Source: Candidatus Moraniibacteriota bacterium (GTDB taxonomy: Bacteria; Patescibacteriota; Minisyncoccia; Moranbacterales; GWC2-37-73). From it: a stretch of 57,933 bases of DNA. Positions 3,754-55,508 of the stretch are shown here, one piece after another. Location: assembly GCA_035390125.1 (NCBI GenBank), contig DAOOTD010000001.1, forward strand, positions 182,003 through 239,935, given 5' to 3'. Under the pieces are notes generated by a model. That model had not been told where the DNA came from, searched no databases, and was given only the letters and a program-made list of their open reading frames with translations. A program made the position numbers and the translations under genes. Within the stretch, counting starts at the first letter, position 1. Each line of letters opens with the position of its first letter.

Positions 3754-6441
3754 TTATTCATTTTTTTCAAACACAATTGCTTCAAAACGATCAATTGTTA
3801 AATTTGTTTCATTTTTTAAATTATTGCCATAGTCCTTATTATAATCGGGAAAACTCCATTTGACTTTATAATTTTCAGGATAGGAAATATTTGACAAAAA
3901 AGAGCTTCCTATACTGCCTGATTGTTTCTGCGCAACTAATGAGTAAGAATCTATGTGCTGAGAATCTTTCACGGCAACTTTGAAAAGTGAGAATGGCAAT
4001 AAATATTTATAAGTGATGGTAACTGTTTCTTGGGGACTTACGTATACCCAATTTGCAAAAACTGTTTTATCGCGGTCTTTATATATACGAGTACCTGAAA
4101 TAGGGTCAATTTCTGTATTATTTTCCTCATTTTGTACGTCGATATCACGTTTAAATCCAAGAGCCTGATAATCCAACGGTTCCTTATTAATTTCACGAGT
4201 TTGTCCGCTAGTCTCTAACAGTTTAGATCCTTCCGGAACATAAACTCTCATATAATCAGCATTAACTTTATTCAACCAGTCATGTTTATAATTGCCACCA
4301 TTATGTTTTCGTGTAATAGTAACCGTATCAATAATTGAGCCATCTTCTTTTATTTCTGCATCATGTTGGATACTTTCATTTATAACAGCATCTGTTTTAA
4401 ATCCGTTTATATTGGTATTTACAACACTCAAATAATCACTTTTTGTTGATATAATTTCTCCAGACCAGCCTTGTTCGGATATTATATTCTGCAAATTATT
4501 GTCCTGAAAATAAAGCAATATCTGTTTTTCTTTTAATCCATTAATAAAAACATTGATAACTTTTGATGCCGTTTCTATATTTTTGCTAGATGAAAGTTTT
4601 TCAAATACGATCGGAGCTAAATCTGACAGAATTTTCTTTGGTTTATTTTCTTCTTTATCGTAATCAGCTTCTACTTCATATTGAGTGACTTCCGTAAAAT
4701 TTTCAGAATCAAGAGTAACATCATATTCAGGCATTTCTATAGGTCCTGTTATTTCGAGTAGTTTTTGCATAATTATTGGTGTAAATGTAATTATGCCGTC
4801 AGCAGTGGGTCCACCCGTTTTCTCATAAAAATAAATCGCTTTTCTGGCCGAGGTTGGAAAATCTGGAAACCAATTACTATCATGTAAACTCCAAGCAGCA
4901 CTGATTTTTTGGATTGGCATAGGAGGCACAACCTTTTCTTTCAATTGCCCATCAGGATTGAAGATTCCGTCAATAAAAAATTTCTTTATATTGCCATTCG
5001 AGATATCCAAAAGACCATAACTGCCTATAAATCCTCCCGTAGCCCTTATTTCTGAATTATTTTGAAATAAGAACAAATATTTTCTTGGCCCATTACCACC
5101 TAATAAATCAACAAAAATATGACTGTTGTTCAAGAAGGAGTCTATTGATTTACGTATTTCAGGCAATTTTTGTTTAAGTAATATGAATTTATCCCGCTTA
5201 TCTTCAGGAAAATCATCTGCAGATATTTTATCTATATTTTTTTGTGAAGCGTCAAGTTCTTTTTTTGCATAATTAACATTCTCTTCGACTGATTTAAAAA
5301 TATCCAGCAATGAAAGCTCGTTCTGACTTGAATTATCAATAGGATTTTTTAGCTCAGTTAATATTTTTGCTAAATTATTAAGCGCTTGTCCTGCAGCTGA
5401 AAAATGCTTACCAGCTTCAACAGCATTTTTTCCAGAAGAAACCTCGGAAGCAAAGGGAATAAAACGCGCAGTTTCTATAATTACCCCGCCCATAGCATTG
5501 ATATCCTCAGAAGCCTTGGAAAAATTAGTATAAGCTTTAGAAAATTGTTTCGCTGAACCTTCAAAATTTCGAGCTTTCATTTCCTCTATTGCCGAAGATA
5601 AATTATTAAATCCATCTTGGCTAATACCGAGAACACGCTCTTTTATGCCAAAACCTCTACTGGCATATGATCCGCCACCTATAGTAAGCAGCATTGTTAA
5701 AGCAACTGCTGCAAATACAGTAAGGGATTTTCTTATATCAAACTGGAATAAAAATTGCGATGGTAAAAAAAATTTACTCCAAGAAAAATTCTGTGGGTAA
5801 GTTTCGTCTTTATTATTAAAAATAGGCTTGCTTATTGATGGAAATACTTCTTCTCTTTCGATGAATTCCGTATTATTTTTTAGTTCTTCTTCTATCCATA
5901 AAGCTTTTTGTTTTTCAAGTTCCTTTTTTTGCTTTATTATAGTTGCTTCTCTTTCATTCTCTAACTTGTGATTATATTCATTTATTTTTTTTATATTTTC
6001 TTGTTGTCTATAAGATTTTATAGGCAATATTTTTTCATATTGAATTTGTTTCTCTGTTTTTTTTGCAATTACTTCGGCTTCCTTTTCCTTGTTGCTGTTT
6101 TTGATTTTTTCTAGGATTAATTTAGATTCATTTGTAGAATTTTTATTATCGACTTCTGAAAAATATTTTGCTGTATCTTTTATTGCTTCATATTTTAAAA
6201 TTTCATCTAAATTAAATTCTGGATCATGAAAAATAGGAGCTTTTTCATTTTCAATGCCAACGCCCAAAATGTAAGCTTTTACAGGTTTTTTCAAGCATAT
6301 TTTTTTTAATCTGGTATTTTTTTCTACATTAAAATCCCGATTTGAAACTGACCTAATCTTTTTCCAATCCAAATCCCCAGTCTGATTAACCGGTTTTACA
6401 TCGAACATTTGTGGGATAATTTTGTTTTTATTTTTCACCAT
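3754..6441 (-). CDS. DUF4012-like envelope protein: K/E-rich N-terminus, one TM helix, large extracytoplasmic domain
   Basis: 895 aa. TM helix LTVFAAVALTMLLTIGGG, and the block NNSEIRATGGFIGSYGLLDISNGNI resembles the DUF4012 signature. The 3' end of the upstream GT gene overlaps its start by 14 nt. Confidence 0.75.
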   Translation of the reverse strand: MVKNKNKIIPQMFDVKPVNQTGDLDWKKIRSVSNRDFNVEKNTRLKKICLKKPVKAYILGVGIENEKAPIFHDPEFNLDEILKYEAIKDTAKYFSEVDNKNSTNESKLILEKIKNSNKEKEAEVIAKKTEKQIQYEKILPIKSYRQQENIKKINEYNHKLENEREATIIKQKKELEKQKALWIEEELKNNTEFIEREEVFPSISKPIFNNKDETYPQNFSWSKFFLPSQFLFQFDIRKSLTVFAAVALTMLLTIGGGSYASRGFGIKERVLGISQDGFNNLSSAIEEMKARNFEGSAKQFSKAYTNFSKASEDINAMGGVIIETARFIPFASEVSSGKNAVEAGKHFSAAGQALNNLAKILTELKNPIDNSSQNELSLLDIFKSVEENVNYAKKELDASQKNIDKISADDFPEDKRDKFILLKQKLPEIRKSIDSFLNNSHIFVDLLGGNGPRKYLFLFQNNSEIRATGGFIGSYGLLDISNGNIKKFFIDGIFNPDGQLKEKVVPPMPIQKISAAWSLHDSNWFPDFPTSARKAIYFYEKTGGPTADGIITFTPIIMQKLLEITGPIEMPEYDVTLDSENFTEVTQYEVEADYDKEENKPKKILSDLAPIVFEKLSSSKNIETASKVINVFINGLKEKQILLYFQDNNLQNIISEQGWSGEIISTKSDYLSVVNTNINGFKTDAVINESIQHDAEIKEDGSIIDTVTITRKHNGGNYKHDWLNKVNADYMRVYVPEGSKLLETSGQTREINKEPLDYQALGFKRDIDVQNEENNTEIDPISGTRIYKDRDKTVFANWVYVSPQETVTITYKYLLPFSLFKVAVKDSQHIDSYSLVAQKQSGSIGSSFLSNISYPENYKVKWSFPDYNKDYGNNLKNETNLTIDRFEAIVFEKNE

Positions 6442-15493: not shown

Positions 15494-16465
15494 TTATATT
15501 ATTATTTCTTTCTGCACGGTAACTTTTTTTATTTCTACTAAGCTAAAATAAACAAATATTTTAAATATAAAAATAATTATCAGGAACCATAAAATAGTCA
15601 GGATTGAACTTAATGGCCAAATTGTAATGAATAAAATAATTGCAACAGCATAAGAATAAAAAGAAAAACTTGAATCATCATTTATTTTTGGCTGGAAAAA
15701 ATCATTTATTTTTTTATTAATAAGTTCGGCAAATATATCAGACATTTTTTCATTCCCTCCTACAACACGGCCGACCATCTGAGAAAGTTGTCTTCGTCCT
15801 TCTTGGACTATCATTTCATTATTTTTTTGCAAAAACTGGATTCGAGAGCTATTTATTTCTTCAGATGAGTTAGTTTTATCGATGTTTTGTTGCGAGTGTA
15901 TTATAAATTCATCAACAGTCAACTCTCCTTTTGGTATTGATTTAAAACTTGGATTAACAAAAGATAAAACAGGCTCAACAACTTTTGAGGTGATTAAACT
16001 GAAATCTAATTTTGGAATAACTTTTTGCCCGTTTGGATTATTTGTTATGAAAAAATACTGACTTGAGATAAGCAAGGATAAAGCCAACACTATTTTGAAT
16101 TTTCCCATATAAAGAGATTTCCATATATCTATTTTAATATTGAGATCCAGATCTTTTCTTATTTCTCTCAAACCTGAAATTACTAAAAGAATAGCTAATA
16201 AAAGAATTGGCAAATACCACAAAAAAGGACTGAAAATAAGGCTAAAAATAAAAGATATTACAACTATAATTTCTACGATAATTCTTTGGCTAATTAAAAT
16301 AGTTGTTAAGCACATGAAAATAATAAGTAAAGAAAAAAACAAAATCAAAAGAAACCAAGCGTTCAGGTTAGGCATTTTAGATAAATAAAAAATTAAAAAC
16401 CAAGAAAAAAATCCAAAGACAATGATCAAGCTTAGCAAAGCATACTTTAATATATTTTTTTTCAT
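15494..16465 (-). CDS. Polytopic membrane protein, unknown function
   Basis: 323 aa. Several N-terminal TM helices, a soluble middle section and a C-terminal TM pair. No motif recognised. Confidence 0.6.
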   Translation of the reverse strand: MKKNILKYALLSLIIVFGFFSWFLIFYLSKMPNLNAWFLLILFFSLLIIFMCLTTILISQRIIVEIIVVISFIFSLIFSPFLWYLPILLLAILLVISGLREIRKDLDLNIKIDIWKSLYMGKFKIVLALSLLISSQYFFITNNPNGQKVIPKLDFSLITSKVVEPVLSFVNPSFKSIPKGELTVDEFIIHSQQNIDKTNSSEEINSSRIQFLQKNNEMIVQEGRRQLSQMVGRVVGGNEKMSDIFAELINKKINDFFQPKINDDSSFSFYSYAVAIILFITIWPLSSILTILWFLIIIFIFKIFVYFSLVEIKKVTVQKEIII

Positions 16466-17267: not shown

Positions 17268-17867
17268 CTATCGCACAGGAACGTTTGGAATATTTGGACT
17301 ATTTGCTCCAGATGGAATTTTTATATCTTTAGCCATATTCATCATCCCTTTCATCATTTCACACATATCTTGAAACTGAATATTGTCTGGTATGCTAATA
17401 TCAACTGAAGCTATAGGAGCACAAACAACATTAGTAGCAGCGTCAAAAGCTTTTTCTGGTTCTTGAAATGAAGGAGCTGATTCTTGTCCTTCCATTTTTG
17501 GCAAATCTTTTATACAGCTCATTGCTAATTTGCTGGACATTGGCATCCCTTCGCCCCAAGTATAAGACACTTCATCTTTCATCACGGAATACATTTTTCT
17601 TCCATCAATTTCTGATGTAGATTTAAAATTCTTTCCATCTGTCTGCATAACAGCTTTTATCTCCTTGCCGTTAATTTTAGTCGTGTAAGTACATTCCATT
17701 TTTTTACCCAAACCCATAGCTTCCTTGATTGAAGTAATCGCAGAACTCTTTGATGAATTATCCTGTTGATTCTGTGCTGTACTTTGATCAACAGCACCTG
17801 GCTTGGCACAACCAGAAAGAAAAATCACTGCTACAACAACAAAAACACTTAAAAGCATTTTTTTCAT
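17268..17867 (-). CDS. Lipoprotein with a Met-rich C-terminal segment
   Basis: 199 aa. Signal peptide plus lipobox (VIFLSGC), and a C-terminal CEMMKGMMNMAKD. Confidence 0.7.
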   Translation of the reverse strand: MKKMLLSVFVVVAVIFLSGCAKPGAVDQSTAQNQQDNSSKSSAITSIKEAMGLGKKMECTYTTKINGKEIKAVMQTDGKNFKSTSEIDGRKMYSVMKDEVSYTWGEGMPMSSKLAMSCIKDLPKMEGQESAPSFQEPEKAFDAATNVVCAPIASVDISIPDNIQFQDMCEMMKGMMNMAKDIKIPSGANSPNIPNVPVR

Positions 17868-18076: not shown

Positions 18077-18211
18077 TCACCTCATCATTTTATGCAATAG
18101 ACTGGGATAAAAATAATAAATTCCTACAGCAAGTATTAAAATAGCTATTAAACAAGGGACTATTATCCTATCCCATATCTTCTGCCATGTTTCCTTGAGA
18201 GAATTTTTCAA
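18077..18211 (-). CDS. Possible 44-aa single-TM peptide (TTG start)
   Basis: The TTG overlaps the stop of the upstream gene (TTGA). Reads KNSLKETWQKIWDRIIVPCLIAILILAVGIYYFYPSLLHKMMR. No independent SD, so coupling is only inferred. Confidence 0.3.
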   Translation of the reverse strand: MKNSLKETWQKIWDRIIVPCLIAILILAVGIYYFYPSLLHKMMR

Positions 18212-18777
18212 ATTTCCGGCACCCCCTTTCTTAAAACTTCTTTTTCAAATTCTCTTTGAATCTCTTTATTGCAAAAATTGATTATCTTTCCGACTTCTTC
18301 AATATATTTCAGGCATTTTTCTCTTGCTCGTGCGGGAAAATTCACAGGAAAATCTTTTTCCGATATTCCATATCCCACACTTTGCAATTCGTGCTGTAAA
18401 GCTATGCAATGAGCTATAAAAATGCCACCCTCGCTGCATTTACAAAGGAGCGCAAAAATGCAGGCTTTAATTTGCTCACATTTCTCCTTGTTTTCCTCTC
18501 TACCATTGAAAATTTTATACGGAATTATGCCTAATCCTGTACTATTTAAAAGAAGTCCTGCAAAAAAAGAAATTCTTGCTTCTGTTTTGGATCCTGCCCT
18601 TAAAGCTAATGACTCTGCCATTAAAGCCAATTTTTCAGAACATTCCCTTGCTTCATCGTCAAAACTGGCTGCGCAAAGTTGTCTGAAAGTGGCTAGATCG
18701 AGTTTGTGAAACAAACAATACCTTTCTATCTTTTCTATTATTTCTTTACTGAATAAAGACATACTCCTAAAACCCAT
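18208..18777 (-). CDS. Cys-rich cytoplasmic protein, unknown function
   Basis: 189 aa. AAGGAGG SD 8 nt upstream of the ATG and about 10 Cys, including CIFALLCKCSEGGIFIAHC. Visibly more G+C-rich than its neighbours. Confidence 0.65.
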   Translation of the reverse strand: MGFRSMSLFSKEIIEKIERYCLFHKLDLATFRQLCAASFDDEARECSEKLALMAESLALRAGSKTEARISFFAGLLLNSTGLGIIPYKIFNGREENKEKCEQIKACIFALLCKCSEGGIFIAHCIALQHELQSVGYGISEKDFPVNFPARAREKCLKYIEEVGKIINFCNKEIQREFEKEVLRKGVPEI

Positions 18778-22068: not shown

Positions 22069-22950
22069 TTATTCAACTATTACTTTTACTGCCCTCAAAA
22101 CTTTCCCGTTTAATTTATATCCTTTAAATGTGATTTTTTTAATTATTCCCTTAATTTCTTCTTGTTTTCTCTCCCCTTTTTCCTGACTGCTGTCTTGTAT
22201 TGCTTCATGTATTGCTGGATCAAATTTATCTCCTTCTTTGGTCAGAATTTCTTCAACCCCGTTTTCTATCAGAACATTTTCCAGTTGTTTCTGAATATGC
22301 ATTATGCCAACTACCCAGGCGTTATCTTTCTGATCTTCCGGAATATGATCGGTAGACATATGAAAATTGTCCAATACTGGAATAATCTGCATAACAATAT
22401 TCTGTCCGACATATTTCATAAATTCTTTCTGCGATTCTGCCTGCATTTTCTTGTAATTCTCAAAATCTGCCTGACAACGCTTCCAGCCGTCTAAAAAACT
22501 TTTTTGTTCTTTATATTTTGAATATTTTTCAATTGCTTGCTCAGTTCCCACTGCTAAATTCATTTTTTTTGCTTCTTCAATGGTTAGCCATTTGTATCCA
22601 TCTTTTTTAAATTCTCCATTAACTTTAACCTTTTCATCTCCTTCATATCTACATACATAGTCAAGGAAAATAAAATGTTTTTCTTCATGAAAATCCTTAT
22701 CAAAAATACTTTCTGAAAAATCCAGCTGGGCTTCAACTTTTACATCCAACCCTGTTTCTTCTTTTATCTCCCTTGCTATTGCTTCTTCCGTTTTTTCTCC
22801 TAATTCCACATGTCCGCCAAAAACAGTCCATTTTCCTTTCCATTTCTTACTTTCTCCTAAAAGTATTTCTTCTTTACTGTTTATTATCAATGCGCCAACA
22901 ATAGCTTCGGGATATTTTTTTTCATTGCTTTTTTGTTTTTTATCTGTCAT
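22069..22950 (-). CDS. grpE: Nudix hydrolase domain fused to nucleotide exchange factor GrpE
   Basis: 293 aa. Residues ~1-145 carry a complete Nudix box, GHVELGEKTEEAIAREIKEETGL. Residues ~150-293 are GrpE-like (ADFENYKKM..., IIPVLDNF, FDPAIHEAI, GYKLNGKVLRAVKVIV). Sits between hrcA and dnaK. Confidence 0.9.
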   Translation of the reverse strand: MTDKKQKSNEKKYPEAIVGALIINSKEEILLGESKKWKGKWTVFGGHVELGEKTEEAIAREIKEETGLDVKVEAQLDFSESIFDKDFHEEKHFIFLDYVCRYEGDEKVKVNGEFKKDGYKWLTIEEAKKMNLAVGTEQAIEKYSKYKEQKSFLDGWKRCQADFENYKKMQAESQKEFMKYVGQNIVMQIIPVLDNFHMSTDHIPEDQKDNAWVVGIMHIQKQLENVLIENGVEEILTKEGDKFDPAIHEAIQDSSQEKGERKQEEIKGIIKKITFKGYKLNGKVLRAVKVIVE

Positions 22951-32202: not shown

Positions 32203-33291
32203 TTAAATTATAATTCCTCCTCCAATAACCTCTTTGTTTTTAGCATAAAACACAGCAGATTGTCCTGGTGTTATAGCTTTCTGCGGTTGTTTAAATTGTA
32301 TTTCATAAAGATTATTCTTGACTTTCTTTATTATACCATGCACTAATGGATGTCGATAGCGAATTTTTACACTTATTTTCAAGGGGAATTTAGTCTGTGG
32401 AATAATCCAGTTTTTTATTTCAACCATCATTGACTTATTATTTATACCAAGATCACTTTTTTTATCAGTAACAATAAGCTGTTTTTTCAGAAAATTTCTG
32501 CCAATAACATAATAGGGGCCCGTTCCACCTATTTTTATTCCTTTACGCTGACCGATAGTGTAAAGTTCTAGCCCCTCATGTTTTCCGATTTTCTTTCCAT
32601 TTGTTAAAACAATATCTCCCGGAGACAAAGAAATATTTCTTTTTATAAAATCCGACGGTGATTTTTCAGAAATAAAACAAATACCCTGAGAATCATCTTT
32701 ATTGAAAACAGGCAAACCTGCTTTTTCAGCAATTTTTCTTATTTTAGATTTCTTATATTTTCCAACAGGAAATAAAATGTGTTTTAATTGTTTCTGCGTT
32801 AATGAATAAAGAAAATATGTTTGGTCTTTTTCTTTATCCGATGGAATATACAGATGATATTTTCCTTTTATTTTCTTTATTTCCGCATAATGGCCTGTAG
32901 CCACATAATCCGCTCTCATCTCAATCATTTTTTTTAAAAGAAAATTAAATTTAATTTTTTCATTACAAACAACACAAGGGTTAGGAGTTTTCCCATCTTT
33001 AGTTTCTCTAATAAAATAATTTACCACTTCTTTTTTAAATTCTCTGGCAACATTTATTGTATAAAGAGGAATACCTAAAATTCGCGCAATTTTTCGAGCA
33101 TCCTGCTGGGATTCAATAGAGCAGCATTTATTTTCACGAAACACATCTTGACTAGGTTCTTTCCAGAAGTGCATAAAAACGCCTATAACATCATAACCTT
33201 GTTTTTTAAGCAAAACGGCCGCAGAAGAAGAATCAACTCCAGCAGACATGCCCAAAATTACTCTTTTTTTGTCTTCACTGATTATACTCAT
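32203..33291 (-). CDS. mnmA: tRNA 2-thiouridine(34) synthase MnmA
   Basis: 362 aa. PP-loop GMSAGVDSS, CNEKIKF and GHYA blocks. Confidence 0.93.
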   Translation of the reverse strand: MSIISEDKKRVILGMSAGVDSSSAAVLLKKQGYDVIGVFMHFWKEPSQDVFRENKCCSIESQQDARKIARILGIPLYTINVAREFKKEVVNYFIRETKDGKTPNPCVVCNEKIKFNFLLKKMIEMRADYVATGHYAEIKKIKGKYHLYIPSDKEKDQTYFLYSLTQKQLKHILFPVGKYKKSKIRKIAEKAGLPVFNKDDSQGICFISEKSPSDFIKRNISLSPGDIVLTNGKKIGKHEGLELYTIGQRKGIKIGGTGPYYVIGRNFLKKQLIVTDKKSDLGINNKSMMVEIKNWIIPQTKFPLKISVKIRYRHPLVHGIIKKVKNNLYEIQFKQPQKAITPGQSAVFYAKNKEVIGGGIII

Positions 33292-33293
33292 AA

Positions 33294-35255
33294 TTATCTG
33301 CCTATTTCCCTTTTGTCTAAATCATAATCCTCATCATCCTGAGTTTGAGTAATCTTACTTTTATTTTGAGCATTTTTAATTATAAGATTTCTCACTTCAT
33401 TTAAATTAATATTTGGCTTATGGCGTTGTGGTTTGAATTTTTTTGGGGCTATATATTGCATCTGGGAAAGAGCCATTGGTTTCTCATTTGGAATATATGC
33501 TTTATGCTCAAATTTATTTTCTTTTGGGTTTTCTTTTTCTCTTTTTACTTCATCTTCAAGAGATATGCTTTTTTTAAAATATTGATTTTTGATTGTCTTG
33601 GTATGTTCATTATTATTAAAATATTTATTTTCTTGTATTTCTTCAGTTTCTCTTTGTTTTTTTCTTTCTTGGGCAATCTTCTCCTTAGCTGTCATACGCT
33701 GGTAATCTTTAAGACATTCTTTGCAGAAAGTAGGCCTTTTACCATCAGGCTGAAAAGGTACCTGGATTTCACTGGCACACATATCACATACAGCACCGAA
33801 CATGGGTCTTTTATTCTCTGTGTCTTTTTGTGAATCTTGCTTGTTCTTTAAAAAATCTGTTTCAGTTTTTTTTGTCTGATTTTCTTGAGCAGGGCGTGCT
33901 TCTTGAGACTGTAAAAAAGAAACATCTTGATGAACTTGTTCAGGAGCCTTATTGACTGTTTTAAAGCCATCAGTCGGCATTATACCAGCCCATTTGGCTA
34001 TTTTTTCCTCAACTTCAATTTTACTTGAGGCATAACGTTCACGCGAAACAGTTATTATTTTTTCTTCATTTTCCAGGGTATCTTTAATATAAATAGGAGG
34101 AAGAACTGTTGCTGAAAAAGCATCACCAGCGATTCCATCTATCATCAGTTTTAAATAAATCTGATATTTAGGAATATTCACAAGGTCATTCTGCATAAAA
34201 ACTGGAGAAAATTCTTTTTCTAGAAACTCAGCATCTGTTGCACCCACACGGAATGAAACGATAGTTCCGGTATTTCCAAAAATAGCATCACGAACTTTTT
34301 CGTCTATTTGGGCTATATATTGATTGGCTAAAATAAGATTTAATCGATATTTTCTGGCTTCAGAAAGAATATTAGCAAATGATTCAGTAGCAAAATTTTG
34401 GAATTCATCAACATATAGATAAAAATCCTTACGGGTTTCTTCAGGAATATCAACTCTTTCCATGGCGGCTAATTGTATCTTGGTAATCATCATAGCTCCA
34501 AGCAATGCACTATTGTCTTCACCTATGCGACCCTTAGAAAGATTTAATATTAAAATCTTCTGGGAATCCATAACTTCACGTATATTAAAAGAAGATTTTG
34601 TTTGTCCAACTATATTTCTAATAAGAGAGCTGGATAGAAATTGTCCGACTTTATTTTGAATAGGAGAAATAACTTCCTGTAAAACCCTTTCATTCCATTT
34701 GCTAAATTCTTCAATCCAAAATTGCTTAACTACTGGATCGGATACATTATCAACAACTTTTTCTCTATATCTTTTATCAACAAGTATTCTAGTAACGCCA
34801 AGAAGTGTGCTTCCTGGATATTCAAGAAGCGCTAATATTGCATTACGAAGAATATATTCAAGGCGTGGTCCCCATGAATCTGCCCATATTTTTTTGAATA
34901 CTCCAATTAAGCCTGATGCCACAAGATGTCTGTATTCTGGGTCAACAGCTTCCATAACGTTGAAAGCTAGTGGAAAATTCTGATCTGCCGGATTAAGATA
35001 TATAACATCATTAATTCTACTAGAAGGCATTGCTTTTATCAGTTTTTCTGCAGTATCCCCATGAGGATCAATGAAACATACGCCCTTGCCACTGCGTATG
35101 TCCTGAACAGCCATATTTTCCAGAAGATTGGTCTTGCCCATACCAGTCTTACCAATGACATACATATGGCGTCTTCTGTCGTCTGTTTTTATGCCAAAAG
35201 CCCGTTCCTGATTGCGAAAATTAGTTTTAGCAAAGAAGTTGATTTCATTATCCAT
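33294..35255 (-). CDS. Soluble VirD4/TraD-like (type IV coupling protein-like) P-loop ATPase with a C-terminal CxxC-x17-CxxC zinc ribbon
   Basis: 653 aa. Walker A VIGKTGMGKTN, FIDPHGD, Walker B FYLYVDEF and a TraG-D_C-like block ARKYRLNLILANQYIAQI...GTIVSFRVG. No TM helix. CDMC-x17-CKEC at nt 33714-33788. Confidence 0.8.
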   Translation of the reverse strand: MDNEINFFAKTNFRNQERAFGIKTDDRRRHMYVIGKTGMGKTNLLENMAVQDIRSGKGVCFIDPHGDTAEKLIKAMPSSRINDVIYLNPADQNFPLAFNVMEAVDPEYRHLVASGLIGVFKKIWADSWGPRLEYILRNAILALLEYPGSTLLGVTRILVDKRYREKVVDNVSDPVVKQFWIEEFSKWNERVLQEVISPIQNKVGQFLSSSLIRNIVGQTKSSFNIREVMDSQKILILNLSKGRIGEDNSALLGAMMITKIQLAAMERVDIPEETRKDFYLYVDEFQNFATESFANILSEARKYRLNLILANQYIAQIDEKVRDAIFGNTGTIVSFRVGATDAEFLEKEFSPVFMQNDLVNIPKYQIYLKLMIDGIAGDAFSATVLPPIYIKDTLENEEKIITVSRERYASSKIEVEEKIAKWAGIMPTDGFKTVNKAPEQVHQDVSFLQSQEARPAQENQTKKTETDFLKNKQDSQKDTENKRPMFGAVCDMCASEIQVPFQPDGKRPTFCKECLKDYQRMTAKEKIAQERKKQRETEEIQENKYFNNNEHTKTIKNQYFKKSISLEDEVKREKENPKENKFEHKAYIPNEKPMALSQMQYIAPKKFKPQRHKPNINLNEVRNLIIKNAQNKSKITQTQDDEDYDLDKREIGR

Positions 35256-35307
35256 AATAACTATCGTTGTAGTTAATTTTTTATATATGCTTCCTTAATT
35301 TATTCTT

Positions 35308-36591
35308 CTATTCTACAGGCAAATTAGAAGGTGCCCCGCCATGTTTTGATTCTACTCTTGCCAATGAAGGCGCTAGTACATTCATGTCTGGCAAATGAAA
35401 TACTGTCGCAAGTTCTTCAGTGCTCATAACAAGCTTGCCTCCTTCTCCATCCATGCTTCTACCTCTGTATCTGCGTAACAATTTGCGTTGTAAATAACGT
35501 AAACGAGTTTCTATAAAAATATGATACGCAGTGGTCTTTGTAGTATTAGGTTTAAGTGAATTCAGATTATCATCAGAAAATTGCCTTATGGCACCAAAAA
35601 AAGAATTAATTCCAACTGCTTTATCATAGTTTTCGCGACGACCTATGTAAAGATAACGAGGTCTTACATAAAACTGTGGTTTTCCAAGATTATCTTCTAC
35701 GGCTTTTAGGACATCTTTTTCAACTGGAGATAAGCGGAACTCCAATGGTTCCTTTTCTTCCTTTTTGGCACTTTCAGCAAATTCTACTGGATTACTAAAA
35801 GCTTTTGGAATACTGCTTAAAATTTCAAATATGTCCTTCCATATTTCTTCAAATATGCTTTTTCTTTCTGTTTCCCTGCCCTTTAACTTATCTAGCGTTG
35901 GCTTGCCCTCCTTTGAAGACCAGCTTGTATCTGTTGGCTGAATTATCCATTGCAACCATAATTTTTGATTTAGTCCGAGTTTGCCCATTGTTTCTATAAG
36001 ACCAGACAAGGGATCTATCATTTTACCGGTTATAGATTCTTCAAATTTTGGATAAGTTTTAATAGGGTAAGCATTATTTTTTGTAAATCCAAGATCTGAA
36101 CCCCATAAATCCCACTGACTGTTTGGAATAATTTTAGGAACATCGTTTACATAATCAGGAACTTCAATAATTTCTACATCAGGATATTGTGCGTAAAGAT
36201 GAGCTTCCACCAAATGGCGATACTTTTGCATGACCCTGATATAAAAATGCACACTGCCAGAATCACCTACTATTTCCAAACTCATGTAATCAGTAAAAGC
36301 GCCGTCTATATAAATTTCCACTGGGTTAAGTGATTTTTGCACCCCGCAAAAACCATTATATAAAGCTTCCATAGGCTTTGGGCTTTTTTCGATATTTTTT
36401 GGAGGAATAATCTCAAGAACAACCCAGTCCGGCATAGCTGCAAATTTATCCTGAATGTGCTTCATCCAGATTAATTTGAAAAGGAAATAAAAAAGGGGCG
36501 GCAAAACAATGAACCATACATAACTCATCGCCTCTGATGCCGTTTTCAAAGAATCCCCTAATTGTTGAAATGATTCAAGAAGAATATTCAT
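35308..36591 (-). CDS. Membrane-anchored protein of unknown function, partner of the ATPase
   Basis: 427 aa. One N-terminal TM helix (YVWFIVLPPLFYFLFKLIW), then a large soluble domain (LEIIPPKNIEKSPKPMEALY...STEELATVFHLP). No family recognised with confidence. Confidence 0.7.
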   Translation of the reverse strand: MNILLESFQQLGDSLKTASEAMSYVWFIVLPPLFYFLFKLIWMKHIQDKFAAMPDWVVLEIIPPKNIEKSPKPMEALYNGFCGVQKSLNPVEIYIDGAFTDYMSLEIVGDSGSVHFYIRVMQKYRHLVEAHLYAQYPDVEIIEVPDYVNDVPKIIPNSQWDLWGSDLGFTKNNAYPIKTYPKFEESITGKMIDPLSGLIETMGKLGLNQKLWLQWIIQPTDTSWSSKEGKPTLDKLKGRETERKSIFEEIWKDIFEILSSIPKAFSNPVEFAESAKKEEKEPLEFRLSPVEKDVLKAVEDNLGKPQFYVRPRYLYIGRRENYDKAVGINSFFGAIRQFSDDNLNSLKPNTTKTTAYHIFIETRLRYLQRKLLRRYRGRSMDGEGGKLVMSTEELATVFHLPDMNVLAPSLARVESKHGGAPSNLPVE

Positions 36592-36636
36592 GGTATTTTT
36601 TGTTTTTTATAGAAACTAAATGGCTTTTATGTGCCA

Positions 36637-37692
36637 TCATTTAATTGAGTAAGTACCCTCTTTTGATTTAGAGAAATAATTATTCAAATTAATAACTATA
36701 GTTGATTCTTTAACCTGCCTTACAGCAAGAACTTTTTCAATAATTTCTTCCTTTTTTAGCGGTTTTGCGCTATTTTTTATAATTTCTTCAATAACATCCT
36801 TGACTGTGCCTCTTTTGTACCCCCATTCAACTAATGCATAAATTCCTCTACCAACTAGAACAAAATTACTGTCTTTTATAAGTTCATTATGCACTGTCTG
36901 TGGATGGGTTTTTTTCTTGTTTAAACGATTTTGATCTATTTTCTTGGCAATTTCTCTAAAATGAAGCGGTTTTCCGAACTCTTTTATGACAAGATAAGCT
37001 TTTTCACGTGTTCCTTTCGGAGAAATTTCTTTCCAATCTACAATACCCCATTTATCAAAAGCATTTTTACTTAATTCACCAGAAACTTGCAAAAAATGCT
37101 TTAACGTTTCTTTTGGTATGTCTAAATTTTTAGTTTTATTTATATGTTCAAATAATATATCAAATGGCAAGGGCTTTTTATGATTCTTTAAGGTTTCTAT
37201 AGCTGCATTTTTTACATTTTTCCAGTGATCAAATTTAAAATCTTTAAGAGCATAAGAGAATTTAAGCTCATTTTTAACTTCATTACCTAAAACATCTTCT
37301 AAACATTCCAAGAAAAAACGTGCAGCAGCTTCTTCATTTGTGTTGCCTTTTCCTAAGACAGATATAATGTGACTTTCTTCCATTATACCACTATTTGATT
37401 GCAAAGCCAAGGTTATTTTTTCCTGAATTTGTATAAAAACAGGGTGTTCTTTCTTGTCTCTTATTTTTTTTAAAACTTCACGTATAATCTGACGTACACG
37501 TTCGCGGGTGATGCGGTGTTTCTTGCCAATTTCTTCAAGAGTCATTTTATTAGGTAAAAATACCCCATACCTATTCAAAATAATCTCTTGAGATCTTTCG
37601 GGAAGGTCAAAAATTAGCTCTCTTAAGGAATCAGAAAAAAACAGATTTTCGTCTGCTGTGTATTTTCCGGCTTGTTTAAGTGATTTTTCCAT
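36637..37692 (-). CDS. Sigma-70 region-4-like HTH plus HARE-HTH DNA-binding protein
   Basis: 351 aa. LPERSQEIILNRYG...TLEEIGKKHRITRERVRQI (region 4-like). The C-terminal KPLHFREIAKKI...FVLVGRGIYALVEW is HARE-HTH-like. Confidence 0.7.
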   Translation of the reverse strand: MEKSLKQAGKYTADENLFFSDSLRELIFDLPERSQEIILNRYGVFLPNKMTLEEIGKKHRITRERVRQIIREVLKKIRDKKEHPVFIQIQEKITLALQSNSGIMEESHIISVLGKGNTNEEAAARFFLECLEDVLGNEVKNELKFSYALKDFKFDHWKNVKNAAIETLKNHKKPLPFDILFEHINKTKNLDIPKETLKHFLQVSGELSKNAFDKWGIVDWKEISPKGTREKAYLVIKEFGKPLHFREIAKKIDQNRLNKKKTHPQTVHNELIKDSNFVLVGRGIYALVEWGYKRGTVKDVIEEIIKNSAKPLKKEEIIEKVLAVRQVKESTIVINLNNYFSKSKEGTYSIK

Positions 37693-37873
37693 ATTTATAT
37701 TTTTAAATAAGATTTGAATTTTAAATAAAAAAACAAACCAACTTATTATAATGAAAAATTAACTTCCGATTATAATCTTGCTTTAAAAATGCACCAAATC
37801 TTTTATTTATTAAGCAAAATAAACTAATAGGGCGAATTTAAATTGCTTTATTGGCAATTTTAGAATTCAAGCT

Positions 37874-37902
37874 ATATTACCACATAATTAATTTTTTGTC
37901 AA
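37874..37902 (-). promoter_or_regulatory. Promoter of the 37.7->33.3 kb unit
   Basis: Minus strand TTGACA-N17-TAATAT. Implies a ~175-nt AT-rich leader. Confidence 0.5.
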
Positions 37903-40966: not shown

Positions 40967-42115
40967 ATGGAAAAAATGTTTGAATCTCAAGCCCCCTTTA
41001 AAGAAGAAAGTGCATTGAAACCGCCAAAAGACAAGCGGGATATCATGGAACAAAAACTTTTTGAAAATGAACCGGATTTATCAAATTCAGCGCTCTGTTT
41101 CCGGGTATTTAAAATTGGAAAATTTGACGAAAAATCTTTAGAACAATTTCGAAAACAAGTCTCATCAATAAGCAATTTTAATCAACTTATTTCTAATAAA
41201 TTAGCAGAAAAAGCTCCTCAAACAACAATTATAACGAATTCTGACTTGGAGGAGGCAGGCAAAAAAGAACTTGATTTTTCCGGATTAAATATTTTGTACA
41301 CTGAGCAATCCAAAGCAAAAAGAAGGTCGGATCTGGGCAAAAAAATAGTTGGAGATAGAAGTTCAGCTAAAGGCGATTTTAGTTATGCTGATATGCTTAA
41401 CAAACCCATCAAGGATGAAGATTTTTCTGATTTTATTTTTGCAAGTTCTGATTTAGCAAATAAACCCAAGGAGTTGCTGATACAAATTTTAGCTATGAAA
41501 AAAACTAAAGATTTTTTTGAGGCATCTCGTCCAGAAAAACTAGCCATAATGGGGTCTGCTGTTAAGGGTGTACACGACATAGAATTAATAAATAAAATAA
41601 TTAAGGGAGAAGATGATATAGATATAAATAATTTGAGCCGTGTTTTACACAATAATACCCTTTCTTTAGCGGGAAAAAACGTAAAATTTTCAGGTATCAC
41701 AGATAACGCCCTTGCTGGAAAATTAGAAATAAACGGAAAACAAGAGCCTATTGGCGGAAATGAAGATTTCCTATATGGATTAAATCAGATGTTGTACCAC
41801 GACAAAGATTGTATATTATTGATAGAACCTAACATCATAGATGAACGCCAAGGTGAAGTTATGGGCGTTGATGCTAAATATTTAAGAAGAGTAGCTGTAT
41901 ATAAAATTTATGCAGAAAGAGCCATACGACAGGCTGGAAAACGTGGAAAAATTGATTTAGGCAATGAAGATAAATTAACAGAAGAAAAAATAAACACAAT
42001 CTTGGATGACTTAGTGGATAAGCATTTATTTTTTTCACGTATAAATACTGAGGGTAATCCTGAAATAGTTCTGACAAAAAGACAGCAAGAAAAAGGAATT
42101 TTATCTCCTATATAA
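40967..42115 (+). CDS. Hypothetical soluble protein
   Basis: 382 aa. No TM helix and no motif recognised. Abuts the EamA gene with a 6-nt gap. Confidence 0.6.
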   Translation: MEKMFESQAPFKEESALKPPKDKRDIMEQKLFENEPDLSNSALCFRVFKIGKFDEKSLEQFRKQVSSISNFNQLISNKLAEKAPQTTIITNSDLEEAGKKELDFSGLNILYTEQSKAKRRSDLGKKIVGDRSSAKGDFSYADMLNKPIKDEDFSDFIFASSDLANKPKELLIQILAMKKTKDFFEASRPEKLAIMGSAVKGVHDIELINKIIKGEDDIDINNLSRVLHNNTLSLAGKNVKFSGITDNALAGKLEINGKQEPIGGNEDFLYGLNQMLYHDKDCILLIEPNIIDERQGEVMGVDAKYLRRVAVYKIYAERAIRQAGKRGKIDLGNEDKLTEEKINTILDDLVDKHLFFSRINTEGNPEIVLTKRQQEKGILSPI

Positions 42116-44212: not shown

Positions 44213-45889
44213 TTATTCTTTAATGCTTTTTTTATTTACTCCAACCATCCAGACTCTTTCATGTATCCATTCACCAATGATAAATTTCAGCATTGTCCGC
44301 GTAATTGTGATAGCTGTAAACATAGAAATTGCAACTCCTATAAATAATGAAGCGGCAAATCCCTTAACAAATCCTGTTCCCATAAAATAAAGTATGCCGG
44401 CAGTCAGGAGCGAAGAAATATTACCGTCACGAATTGATGTCCAAGCTCGTTTAAATCCCTCGTCCAGTGAATTAGGAATATTTCTGCCACTCCTTATTTC
44501 TTCTTTAGTGCGTTCAAAAATAAGAATATTAGCATCCACTGCCATACCAATAGAAAGTACAAAACCGGCAATTCCAGATAATGTTAATGTTATCCCTGTT
44601 AGTTTAAATATTGTTATCATTAAAACGGTATAAATAAGCAAAGACAATGAAGCTACAAATCCTAAAAATCTATAAAACACTAACATGAAAATAATTACTG
44701 CAGCCATTCCAATTGCACCGGCAATTAAAATACTTTTCAATGAATCTGCTCCGAGTGTTGCTTCCACGCTTTGCTGTCCAACTAATGTCAGCGGTACAGG
44801 AAGTGCTCCTTGGTTCAATCTATCGGCTATATCCTTAGCTTCTTTAAATGTATAATTTCCTGTAATTACAGCTTGCCCATTTGTAATTTCAGCCTGAACA
44901 GTTGGAGCTATTTGCAATTGCCCATCCAGGAAAATAGCTATTTTTTTGCCAAGATTTTTCTTTGTCAGTTCTGCAAATAATTTTGTCCCCTCATCATCAA
45001 ATTGTAAAGCTACTTCTGGTTCTCCCAAACCTTGGCCTTGTGAATATTGAGCTGTGGCATTTTTCAAGTTTTTCCCGGTAAGACCTGTGTCTTTATATTT
45101 GAATTCTTCATACTGCGCTGCATTCTGTTTGCCAAAAAGTATATGCTGGACATGAACTTCCTTTTCATCACCTTCGCCTCTGGATTCAATGAATTTTATG
45201 ATATGCCATCCAAACTGAGTTTCAACTAAACTTGAATATATTTCTCCGGGTTGCATATTGCCTTCAAAAATGACTTTGTCGAATTCTGGAACAAATGTGG
45301 ATTTTTTTACAAAACCTAAATCCCCTCCTTTTTCTTTTGATCCTGGATCCTGACTGTTATCCTTGGCTAATTGTTCGAAACTTATTTCTTTTTCCTTAGC
45401 CTGAGTAAGTATTTCCTCGGCTTTCTTTTTTGACTGTGCATTCATTTGCTCGAACATTTGTGTGATCTGAGAATCAGGTTCTCCTTCTTCCTTGAATTCA
45501 AGCAATGGTGCATCTTTTATTTTCTTTTTTGCTTCCTCAATATCAGTAACCCCAGGAAGCTCTATAATGACCCGATTATCATCCCCTTTTTTTGTAGTCT
45601 GGACTAAAGGTTCTCCGACGCCGAAAGCATTTACTCGACGCTCAATTACATCTTGTGCAGCCTGCATAGCATCAGAAATTTTGGAAGAATCTATTTTGGA
45701 AACATCGGCTTTATATTCCAGGTGAATTCCTCCCTGTAAATCAAGACCTAGCTTCATGTTTAATTTATTAATTTTATCATAAACAGACGGTATATTTTTT
45801 ACCGCCTGAGGATATGCCATAACTGCACAAACCACAAACAAAATCACGATTCCGGCAAATTTAAGTTGTAATTTCTGTTTTATATTCAT
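44213..45889 (-). CDS. secD: Protein translocase subunit SecD with an inserted parvulin-like PPIase domain
   Basis: 558 aa. LGLDLQGGIHL, a C-terminal 5-TM bundle and the LPVPL block. Residues ~136-262 (nt ~45104-45484) read KGGDLGFVKKSTFVPEFDKVIF...ETQFGWHIIKFIE...VHVQHILF. Confidence 0.93.
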   Translation of the reverse strand: MNIKQKLQLKFAGIVILFVVCAVMAYPQAVKNIPSVYDKINKLNMKLGLDLQGGIHLEYKADVSKIDSSKISDAMQAAQDVIERRVNAFGVGEPLVQTTKKGDDNRVIIELPGVTDIEEAKKKIKDAPLLEFKEEGEPDSQITQMFEQMNAQSKKKAEEILTQAKEKEISFEQLAKDNSQDPGSKEKGGDLGFVKKSTFVPEFDKVIFEGNMQPGEIYSSLVETQFGWHIIKFIESRGEGDEKEVHVQHILFGKQNAAQYEEFKYKDTGLTGKNLKNATAQYSQGQGLGEPEVALQFDDEGTKLFAELTKKNLGKKIAIFLDGQLQIAPTVQAEITNGQAVITGNYTFKEAKDIADRLNQGALPVPLTLVGQQSVEATLGADSLKSILIAGAIGMAAVIIFMLVFYRFLGFVASLSLLIYTVLMITIFKLTGITLTLSGIAGFVLSIGMAVDANILIFERTKEEIRSGRNIPNSLDEGFKRAWTSIRDGNISSLLTAGILYFMGTGFVKGFAASLFIGVAISMFTAITITRTMLKFIIGEWIHERVWMVGVNKKSIKE

Positions 45890-54524: not shown

Positions 54525-55508
54525 TTAAATCATTGGAACATAAACACCAATAATAGCTTCTTTTAAATCTACCTCATTGGCAACTCTGAGTTCTGTTACC
54601 TTCTCTGGGACATTTTTATGCCCGGGCAAAAATTGTCTATATAAATCCTTATCTTTTTCCCAAAATTGAGAAATAGCCTTTTTTATATTTTCTTTTCCTG
54701 TAATAGTGTGCGGCTCAACAACTTTTTCTTTCAATAATTTTATCAGTTTTATTCTCAGGTCTACTGGCATAATTTCCTCACCTAATATTGCATCCCTTTC
54801 TATCGTAAATTGATCGATAACTTCTTTTGCCGCGCTAATTCCATTAAATCCTTTGGCTTTTATAGCATTAAAAAAATCCTGGATCCTGTCCTGACTATGA
54901 TCACCAAAATATTTTTCATATATGCCATACCCCCCTTTAAAGGCATGTGCAACTCTTTTTTTAAAAATATTTTTCAATAAATCTCTTTTTTGATTTATGA
55001 CTTCCATCATTTCTTCCTTGTGTTTTTCAAGAAATTCTTCAACTATTTCTCCTTCCATATTCATCAAGTCTTCCTTTACAAAACTGGCGTCTGACATTTT
55101 AGCTAATTTTTCAGCACTAAAAACAAACCCACAGGTGTCTTTTCTCATATAACCCTTTCCTAAGGCAAAAAAAACATTTTCATCCATACCAATTAATTTA
55201 TCAATTTCATATGTCATAGCAGAAATACCTGATTTTTTAGAACTTTGCAATTCGCCAGCTTCTAATATTTTTACAAGTTTTGCAGGATCACTTATGATAG
55301 CGTGACTGAAATATGGCTCGTCGCCTAAAATTTCATCTATATTTTCTTCATTCAAAATAGGAATATTAAGATTTCCGGCTTTCTCAATTATATTTTCTCT
55401 ATTTTTTTCTGCTTCTAATTTTTCCGTAACTTTTTCAATTTCTTCCTGATCAACTTTCTCTATGCTTTTTACAGTAGGTTGTGGATTAAAAATATTGCTC
55501 TCATTCAT
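54525..55508 (-). CDS. Hypothetical protein (weak ADP-ribosyltransferase-like motif pattern)
   Basis: 327 aa with no TM helix. Contains YFSHAIISDPAKLVKILEAGEL, VFFALGKGYM and VTELRVANEVDLKEAIIGVYV. The interpretation is speculative. Confidence 0.6.
   Translation of the reverse strand: MNESNIFNPQPTVKSIEKVDQEEIEKVTEKLEAEKNRENIIEKAGNLNIPILNEENIDEILGDEPYFSHAIISDPAKLVKILEAGELQSSKKSGISAMTYEIDKLIGMDENVFFALGKGYMRKDTCGFVFSAEKLAKMSDASFVKEDLMNMEGEIVEEFLEKHKEEMMEVINQKRDLLKNIFKKRVAHAFKGGYGIYEKYFGDHSQDRIQDFFNAIKAKGFNGISAAKEVIDQFTIERDAILGEEIMPVDLRIKLIKLLKEKVVEPHTITGKENIKKAISQFWEKDKDLYRQFLPGHKNVPEKVTELRVANEVDLKEAIIGVYVPMI

Follow-up and report, generated by a model that had tools for sequence, protein, structure and literature searches.

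Among the closest described counterparts of the locus reported here are the homologs of type IV coupling proteins (T4CPs) that Quinonero-Coronel et al. (2025, PMC12102498) catalogued in their survey of 3,035 genomes of Patescibacteria. According to that survey, VirB4 occurs in 2,417 of the genomes, there are hardly any relaxases in the phylum, and the t4cp genes have possibly been exapted. T4CP homologs unlinked to virB4 are thus already on record (PMC12102498), as are a Pfam entry for DUF8128 and the ribbon of model TIGR04272.

We analyzed a 57,933-nucleotide (nt) stretch of DNA from Candidatus Moraniibacteriota bacterium (contig DAOOTD010000001.1, positions 182,003 to 239,935; hereafter the window), in which three co-directional genes on the minus strand encode a DNA-binding protein of 351 amino acids (aa) (gene 1, 37692..36637), a 427-aa membrane protein with a DUF8128 domain (gene 2, 36591..35308) and a 653-aa soluble, T4CP-like P-loop ATPase (gene 3, 35255..33294). 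The gaps between them are 45 nt and 52 nt. A first-pass annotation of the window had singled out this trio as an orphan coupling protein-like translocase, and all of the features it named in the three genes are present. The reading that we prefer, to which we give about an even chance, is that the trio is a split, membrane-tethered motor of the coupling type that belongs to the relaxase-less type IV secretion system (T4SS) of Patescibacteria and has a helix-turn-helix (HTH) protein of Paceibacteria type as its partner.

The ATPase and its separately encoded membrane partner

Gene 3 exceeds the Pfam cut-offs for two T4CP families, TrwB_AAD_bind (49.2 bits, cut-off 20.5) and TraG-D_C (28.7, cut-off 22), as well as those of zf_Tbcl_2 (40.3 bits, cut-off 27) and TIGR04272 (42.8, cut-off 36), and falls far short of the NCBIfam TraD equivalogs (46 vs 366). 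Its ATPase core covers residues 24-346 (nt 34218-35186), with a Walker A motif, GKTGMGKT, at residues 35-42 (nt 35130-35153) and a Walker B motif, YLYVDE, at residues 279-284 (nt 34404-34421). The catalytic motifs are invariant in our alignment of the ATPases (A2), and residues ~106-231, which lie between the two Walker motifs, are predicted to be all-helical and are spanned by the Pfam match. Downstream of the core is a tail (residues 426-653) that is rich in lysine (15%), glutamate (10.5%) and glutamine (9%), ends with a conserved C-terminal peptide and carries a zinc ribbon, CDMC-x17-CKEC, at residues 490-514 (nt 33714-33788). The exact CxxC-x17-CxxC spacing of this ribbon recurs in 73 of the 82 complete orthologous ATPase open reading frames (ORFs). 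There is no transmembrane segment in the gene 3 protein (maximum 19-residue Kyte-Doolittle value, 1.26), and in this, as in the Walker motifs, the ribbon and the K/E/Q-rich tail, the first-pass annotation was exact.

The same annotation had called the ATPase coupling protein-like and had named HerA and FtsK as the identities to set against this one. The T4CP models outrank both DUF87, at 23.1 bits just short of its cut-off of 23.2, and HerA_C (13.2 bits), and no FtsK match was obtained. When gene 3 was compared with the PDB, as a single sequence and as a 25-sequence profile, TrwB (E 5e-7) and DotL were its sole significant solved relatives; no HerA or FtsK chain was matched at E = 1 (single sequence) or E = 10 (profile), nor was VirB4/TrwK. 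We therefore rejected a HerA/FtsK identity, and the coupling protein-like assignment stands.

The first-pass annotation correctly read a single N-terminal transmembrane helix in the product of gene 2 (~residues 25-43, nt 36463-36519, Kyte-Doolittle 1.87), but the large domain that it could not place does have a place, as DUF8128 (PF26449; ~residues 54-408, nt 35368-36432). This is the precomputed Pfam assignment for the window protein and for all 120 of the homologs listed, and our own Pfam/NCBIfam scan of gene 2 came back empty because PF26449 is missing from the Pfam copy used. The family is a large one: a whole-library profile search with gene 2 returned 2,660 cluster representatives, and 881 of these matches have E <= 1e-30. 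An AlphaFold2 model of the protein (pLDDT 70, pTM 0.64) was compared with the PDB using Foldseek, and the first nine places were all taken by TrwK/VirB4 chains (probability 0.96-1.0, E 6e-4 to 5e-3), which come from the T4SS of R388; unrelated folds came after these. Among viral models the best match was gp156 of Bacillus phage G (8e-16), along with proteins of phage JL and phage Slash and with phage G gp155 (6e-7), which is itself VirB4-like by Pfam (P-loop_TraG, AAA_10 and DUF87).

Could the ATPase then be a divergent VirB4-type paralog that, together with the N-domain, gives the T4SS an additional ATPase for assembly or pilus biogenesis? The VirB4-like fold of the N-domain would fit this, and Patescibacteria VirB4 is likewise accompanied by a separately encoded, N-domain-like TrsD/TraC-like protein. 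Also, DUF87 lies only just under its cut-off, and in hhalign comparisons the gene 3 profile reached a probability of 70% with the VirB4 protein TrsE of pSK41 relative to 8.6% with its VirD4 protein, TrsK, although the former match is local, around Walker B, and does not discriminate between the two. However, Pfam, NCBIfam and the PDB all put T4CP families first (TrwB_AAD_bind, TraG-D_C, TraD, TrwB, DotL), no VirB4 family model (CagE_TrbE_VirB, AAA_10 or P-loop_TraG) or solved VirB4 was matched by gene 3, and a canonical VirB4 is already present in the genomes. The survey, too, picks these proteins up with T4CP profiles. We consider a VirB4 paralog quite unlikely.

The relationship between genes 2 and 3 becomes apparent from proteins in which their counterparts form one chain. 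In a 937-aa protein of Berkelbacteria, residues 47-383 correspond to residues 56-427 of gene 2, and residues 388-807 correspond to residues 2-423 of gene 3, with 58% identity in the latter part and a junction of just four residues between the two. Similarly, the phage protein family phrog_5156 (824 positions) is matched by gene 2 at positions 26-361 (E 3e-12) and by gene 3 at positions 407-806 (E 4e-61), and a search that started from phage G gp156 recovered many proteins of 730-990 aa that combine PF26449 with PF10412, from Berkelbacteria, Falkowbacteria, Saccharibacteria, Gottesmanbacteria and other Patescibacteria. The fused Patescibacteria proteins, such as the Berkelbacteria 937-aa and a Gottesmanbacteria 726-aa protein, are 54-58% identical to the window proteins in the ATPase and 28-29% identical in the N-domain. 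A comparison of 106 related loci showed genes 2 and 3 side by side as distinct genes in 84 and as a fusion in one; we rejected a frameshift or an assembly artifact as the cause of the split, because the genes are kept separate in 84 loci. These alignments lead us to conclude that genes 2 and 3 represent the gene-fission form of a Patescibacteria-wide protein in which DUF8128 is joined to a T4CP of the VirD4/TrwB type. Since the fused single-chain orthologs are collinear with both genes, the proposal of the first-pass annotation that the anchor of the ATPase is supplied in trans is supported, but what is supplied is more than the mere anchor it had pictured: an entire DUF8128 domain with a fold like that of the VirB4 N-terminal domain.

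The fused form is also found in phages. The Bacillus phages that have homologs belonging to phrog_5156 are G, SPO1, CP-51 and JL. In gp156 of phage G (825 aa), the ATPase shares 31% identity with gene 3 (E 8e-45), and the N-terminal part matches the DUF8128 profile with an hhalign probability of 95.6%. A tblastn search of phage genomes with the 427-aa protein gave no match, and for this half the link to phages was seen only in profile and structure-model searches. In the genome of phage G (L001:3196-7338) the VirB4-like gp155 precedes gp156, and in that of SPO1 (L086:3747-7284) the gene after gp27.4 is gp27.3, which encodes a nickase of family Replic_Relax (PF13814) with the annotation "replication initiation by nicking." Their presence suggests that large Bacillus phages carry a DNA-handling module derived from conjugation.

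The helix-turn-helix partner and the conservation of the trio

The first-pass annotation had recognized in gene 1 both a sigma region 4 and a HARE-HTH-like fold, and we found both well above their Pfam cut-offs. Sigma70_r4 covers residues 29-78 (nt 37459-37608) with 48.5 bits against a cut-off of 24.1, whereas HARE-HTH covers residues 230-290 (nt 36823-37005) with 62.5 bits against 25.9. The middle part of the protein is poorly conserved and its C-terminal part is conserved; in our alignment of gene 1 homologs (A3) the segments TLEEIG..ITRERVRQ and TVHNELIKD..VLVGRGIYAL.EWGY are nearly invariant. Is gene 1, then, a sigma factor? Its N-terminal domain does resemble region 4 of the group-1, or primary, sigma factors SigA, HrdB and RpoD (profile match E 7e-20). 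The scores of the sigma equivalog and subfamily models are far below their cut-offs, however, and that of the ECF superfamily model is 36.7 bits against a cut-off of 42.9. Region 4 was found alone, and since regions 2 and 3 of sigma gave no match, gene 1 is very probably not a sigma factor. Nor does the protein qualify by model as the delta subunit of RNA polymerase, because its HARE-HTH domain reaches 36.1 bits with TIGR04567, below the cut-off of 42. The pairing of sigma region 4 with HARE-HTH is peculiar to this module, as is its fixed place upstream of DUF8128, and a literature search on the combination of HARE-HTH with sigma domains found nothing useful. Region 4 of gene 1 also matches MzaA of the MZA system.

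The three genes are conserved together, as the first-pass annotation had required for its reading to hold. Their order, HTH gene, DUF8128 gene and ATPase gene, is identical in 80 of 80 species-level GTDB genomes of Moraniibacteriota and allies, with loci cut by a contig end counted as agreeing on the part present, and it is retained in four more divergent Parcubacteria-type loci that have secDF upstream and pentose-phosphate genes downstream, so that the trio keeps its order in 84 related loci. Among the more distant genomes the flanks of the trio change. Conservation was also assessed from the HTH side by scanning metagenome contigs with the HTH alignment, which yielded 22 full-length distant relatives with 26-39% identity. 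A DUF8128 gene directly follows the HTH gene in 17 of the 18 distant loci that have room for it, and the ATPase follows in nine of these 17 (one fused form included). The link between the HTH gene and DUF8128 is at least as tight as that between DUF8128 and the ATPase. In the distant loci L099 and L105, the gene after DUF8128 encodes a protein of ~320-330 aa with a hydrophobic N-terminal segment and is followed by an mnmA-like ORF; other ORFs follow DUF8128 in L106 and L114, and L107 has the HTH gene by itself, close to an mnmA-like ORF and alaS.

We conclude that the trio is real and typical of its lineage. The HTH gene is not in the contexts of the fused genes that we looked at in Falkowbacteria, Saccharibacteria, Berkelbacteria and Microgenomatia; the one exception among fused forms is L109, with an HTH gene upstream. 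From its absence in these contexts, the HTH gene appears to be a partner specific to Paceibacteria/Parcubacteria-type lineages. Many of the trio-bearing GTDB genomes (L003-L081) have "uncultured Bdellovibrionales bacterium" as their record title. They share 47-76% protein identity with Moranbacteria and their synteny is that of Moranbacteria, and these labels look wrong.

A candidate motor for the Patescibacteria T4SS

In a neighbor-joining tree of the ATPase domains, the proteins that combine DUF8128 with a T4CP form two paralogous clades. The window ATPase and the other split forms cluster with the Berkelbacteria 937-aa copy and with Microgenomatia proteins of 726-736 aa, and the other clade consists of Falkowbacteria and Saccharibacteria proteins, a division with which the identities to the window ATPase agree (54-58% within its own clade vs 43-48% to the other). 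In four of the four loci looked up, the Microgenomatia-type clade-mates divergently adjoin genes for PrgI (VirB3), a TraC/TrsD-like protein and VirB4. The next gene encodes an M23 peptidase in both of those loci where it is annotated, and one of the four loci is near dnaN. In Berkelbacteria (L092:2432-8348), two fused paralogs, of 829 and 937 aa and from one clade each, stand in tandem beside secDF, and directly before each of them comes a small ORF (106 and 173 aa, respectively) that has no known domain. The fused genes of Falkowbacteria and Saccharibacteria likewise come after small ORFs, which are unrelated. These small ORFs were considered as homologs of the HTH gene and rejected, as they have no similarity to it, but they may be unrecognized partners of the fused proteins.

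The tables of the survey cover five of our trio-bearing genomes, of which four are VirB4-positive, and in one of them, from Moranbacteria, a VirB4-TrsD-VirB3 cluster is present together with two T4CP hits that lie far from it. The fused DUF8128-T4CP proteins are detected by the T4CP profiles of the survey and are counted there as "T4CP homologs" (PMC12102498). By analogy with its VirB4-positive relatives that bear the trio, the window organism very probably has a T4SS elsewhere in its genome. It is in this respect that the first-pass annotation, for which the module was an orphan that stands alone, no longer fits: the closest fused orthologs adjoin T4SS genes, and trio-bearing relatives encode VirB3, TrsD and VirB4 at other sites.

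How might a motor in two pieces operate? We propose that the 427-aa half would sit in the membrane by its one helix, and that its VirB4-N-domain-like cytoplasmic domain would recruit the soluble 653-aa ATPase, which would assemble at the membrane into a ring-shaped motor driven by nucleoside triphosphates (a ring being expected from the superfamily). The VirB4-like domain would also dock the motor to the inner-membrane complex of the T4SS, where it would serve as the substrate-engaging "coupling" ATPase of a chromosomal, relaxase-less system encoded elsewhere in the genome. The gene 1 protein might either regulate the operon or hand nucleic acid to the motor, and it is feasible that its sigma-like region 4 could recognize the conserved TTGACA of its own operon. 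The zinc ribbon, finally, may be an extra element, added after the fission, that binds nucleic acid or a partner.

A number of points weigh against this role in a T4SS, and several of them favor the alternative that the motor and its HTH protein form a stand-alone translocase that takes up or exports nucleic acid, or handles the chromosome in the manner of an FtsK-like DNA pump, with no T4SS involved. Within the trio the motor comes with an anchor of its own and with a DNA-binding protein dedicated to it, and the setting is one of housekeeping genes (alaS/mnmA-like, pheS/tyrS and secDF/secA); the link of the trio to a T4SS is by orthology and by neighborhood in another class rather than in this lineage. 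The T4SS-adjacent orthologs, moreover, have neither the transmembrane helix nor the zinc ribbon and so may work differently. The phage homologs exist in the absence of a full T4SS, and one of them, SPO1 gp27.4, is beside a Replic_Relax nickase. The ATPase is also very strongly conserved, with 54-58% identity between classes, and conservation this strong is unusual for conjugative coupling proteins. In the survey, T4CP homologs have a wider spread than VirB4 (2,918 of the 3,035 genomes vs 2,417) and are unlinked to virB4 in nearly all Patescibacteria (only 148 of 5,713 are near it), the T4CP homolog of S. epibionticum is non-essential while its T4SS genes are essential, and one of the five trio-bearing genomes is scored VirB4-negative (PMC12102498). 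To these may be added four distant loci that have the HTH and DUF8128 genes with no adjoining ATPase gene, which in these loci may have moved elsewhere or been lost.

Other points that tell against the T4SS role concern the models and trees themselves. The tree that separates the two clades is a neighbor-joining tree without bootstrap support. The AlphaFold2 model of gene 3 is of low confidence (pLDDT 48, pTM 0.27), which made a fold comparison impossible, and neither the ring nor the all-alpha domain is backed by it. The resemblance of gene 2 to TrwK/VirB4 was seen at TM-scores of ~0.35 on a model with a pLDDT of 70; no sequence-level VirB4 signal was present when the gene 2 profile was compared with the PDB, and hhalign detected no similarity of DUF8128 to pSK41 TrsD and TrsE, to a Patescibacteria TraC-like protein or to phage G gp155. 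Because these sequence-level tests all failed, we infer a likeness of DUF8128 to the VirB4 N-domain in structure and not membership in that family. We nonetheless regard a stand-alone translocase, the strongest competing reading, as less likely than the T4SS role: the closest fused orthologs adjoin T4SS core genes in all four loci, the N-domain resembles that of VirB4, a T4SS-docking domain, and VirB4 is present in most of the trio-bearing genomes covered by the survey tables, with the further consideration that genomes in which it was not detected may be incomplete drafts.

If the trio is indeed the coupling-type motor of a T4SS, in which direction would it work? One version, to which we give only a small chance, is that of an import motor, in which the DUF8128-tethered T4CP-like ring would pull host RNA or DNA in through the channel or pilus of the T4SS while the ribbon and the gene 1 protein grip the polynucleotide. 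Acquisition of host RNA by a cultivated member of the Patescibacteria has been described, by a mechanism left unresolved in the preprint (bioRxiv 10.64898/2026.06.21.733656), and an import motor, if true, would provide its molecular basis. Irrespective of direction, Patescibacteria account for much of the diversity of bacteria, are host-dependent and need a relaxase-less T4SS. T4CP homologs are present in ~96% of the surveyed genomes and their role was left open in PMC12102498; they can now be given an anatomy, and an anonymous DUF and an "orphan" ATPase become a defined, testable candidate for the motor that selects or moves the T4SS substrate, which may be nucleic acid. The first-pass annotation was aware of no functional description of the trio. 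Unlinked T4CP homologs had in fact been catalogued, with exaptation suggested, in PMC12102498. Our full-text literature searches turned up no paper in which DUF8128 or PF26449 is named. The parts of PMC12102498 used here do not discuss the DUF8128-T4CP architecture with its VirB4-like N-domain, the two clades or the T4SS adjacency of one of them, nor the fission, the ribbon and the HTH partner in Paceibacteria-type genomes or the phage relatives.

The locus in its genome and among known systems

The first-pass annotation had placed the three genes behind a promoter of the form TTGACA-N17-TAATAT, and the whole arrangement is present at 37902..33294. The promoter itself, of sigma-70 type with a 17-nt spacer and a TG-extended TAATAT, occupies 37874..37902 on the minus strand and was identified by a pattern scan and by conservation. 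As promoter-like sites in this AT-rich DNA numbered 26 relative to 30.8 in shuffled sequences, the pattern alone does not exceed what chance would give. Four species (the window, L003, L030 and L002) nevertheless have the block GTTGACAAAA..TGTGGTAATATA in unchanged form, and a chance match was rejected on account of this conservation. Because the block stays invariant while the remaining spacer around it differs in sequence and length, TTGACA-17-TAATAT is very probably a real promoter. The leader between the promoter and the start of gene 1 (37693-37873, minus strand) is ~180 nt in the window and much shorter in the three relatives; the extra stretch is an AT-rich insertion with no Rfam match. 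At the other end of the trio, a gene named mnmA by BLAST only (32203..33291, minus strand) begins 2 nt past the stop codon of gene 3 and, because only these 2 nt separate them, is probably co-transcribed with the trio. It is next to the trio in only some relatives and is no functional part of the module.

Beyond the trio, the window has the look of an ordinary chromosome. A Pfam scan of 33 of its ORFs, the trio included but ~11 others of 110 aa or more left aside, brought up neither VirB4 nor a relaxase nor VirB6, which agrees with what the first-pass annotation had said of VirB4 and relaxases. One flank carries lepA, murJ, glycosyltransferase genes, recJ, an ADP-forming acyl-CoA ligase gene, dnaJ, dnaK, grpE, hrcA, corA, cysS, dnaB and recR, and the other an EamA transporter gene, secDF, secA, murB and a P-type ATPase gene (all by the Pfam scan). 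The nearest neighbors, named by translation or BLAST only, are alaS-like, mnmA, pheS, an ORF with a tRNA-binding domain and tyrS. Seven of the 33 scanned ORFs had no family match, and the others that matched are ordinary chromosomal genes. There is no tRNA gene and no Rfam family in the window, and its base composition is even. The locus is housekeeping chromosome and not a mobile element; an ordinary conjugative element was rejected from the Pfam scans of the surroundings, and here, too, the first-pass annotation was right.

This setting bears on one more explanation, namely that the trio is a domesticated module of mobile-element, phage or defense origin that has no role in secretion. Homologs are found in Bacillus phages G, SPO1, CP-51 and JL, residues 21-366 of the ATPase match mad8, a PADLOC model for the MADS anti-phage system (E 1e-18), and the MzaA match of gene 1 region 4 points the same way. 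These defense-model matches are confined to generic P-loop or region-4 parts, however, and the trio has a fixed chromosomal position and strong conservation in more than 80 species, the window showed no sign of an integrase, of repeats or of an anomalous composition, and the family is near-universal in the phylum according to PMC12102498. Such an origin seems to us very improbable.

A few other features of the window deserve mention. Five ORFs of 189-382 aa had no Pfam match at the thresholds used (40967-42115 on the plus strand; 15494-16465, 54525-55508, 17268-17867 and 18208-18777 on the minus strand), and an 895-aa DUF4012 protein (3754-6441) is encoded beside three glycosyltransferase genes. 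Within the hrcA-grpE-dnaK-dnaJ cluster, a single ORF (22069-22950, minus strand) joins a NUDIX hydrolase (residues 17-136) to GrpE (residues 138-292), an unusual fusion for a chaperone co-factor. The SecD protein (44213-45889, minus strand) has an inserted peptidyl-prolyl isomerase domain of the PPIC type (Rotamase), and the same layout is found in the distant Parcubacteria-type loci L082 (1-1801) and L085 (1624-3684), with secDF directly upstream of the trio.

How does the module compare with the systems that are best known? With the canonical T4CPs (VirD4, TrwB, TraD and DotL), gene 3 shares the P-loop core and a long low-complexity C-terminal tail, but that tail differs in having a CxxC-x17-CxxC ribbon, the chain has no N-terminal two-helix membrane domain, its anchor being a separate DUF8128 protein with one helix, and no relaxase or T4SS genes adjoin the trio in the window. 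The fused proteins of other Patescibacteria are single chains, the Microgenomatia forms are without a transmembrane helix, and the zinc ribbon is in none of the four that we examined. Phage G gp156, SPO1 gp27.4 and the CP-51 and JL homologs have the same two-part layout in one chain, without the ribbon or the HTH partner, and the DUF8128 model also matches the N-terminal part of the VirB4-like gp155 of phage G. With TrsD, in turn, the DUF8128 protein shares the property of being an N-domain encoded apart from its ATPase, although the ATPase with which DUF8128 is partnered is like a T4CP and not like VirB4.

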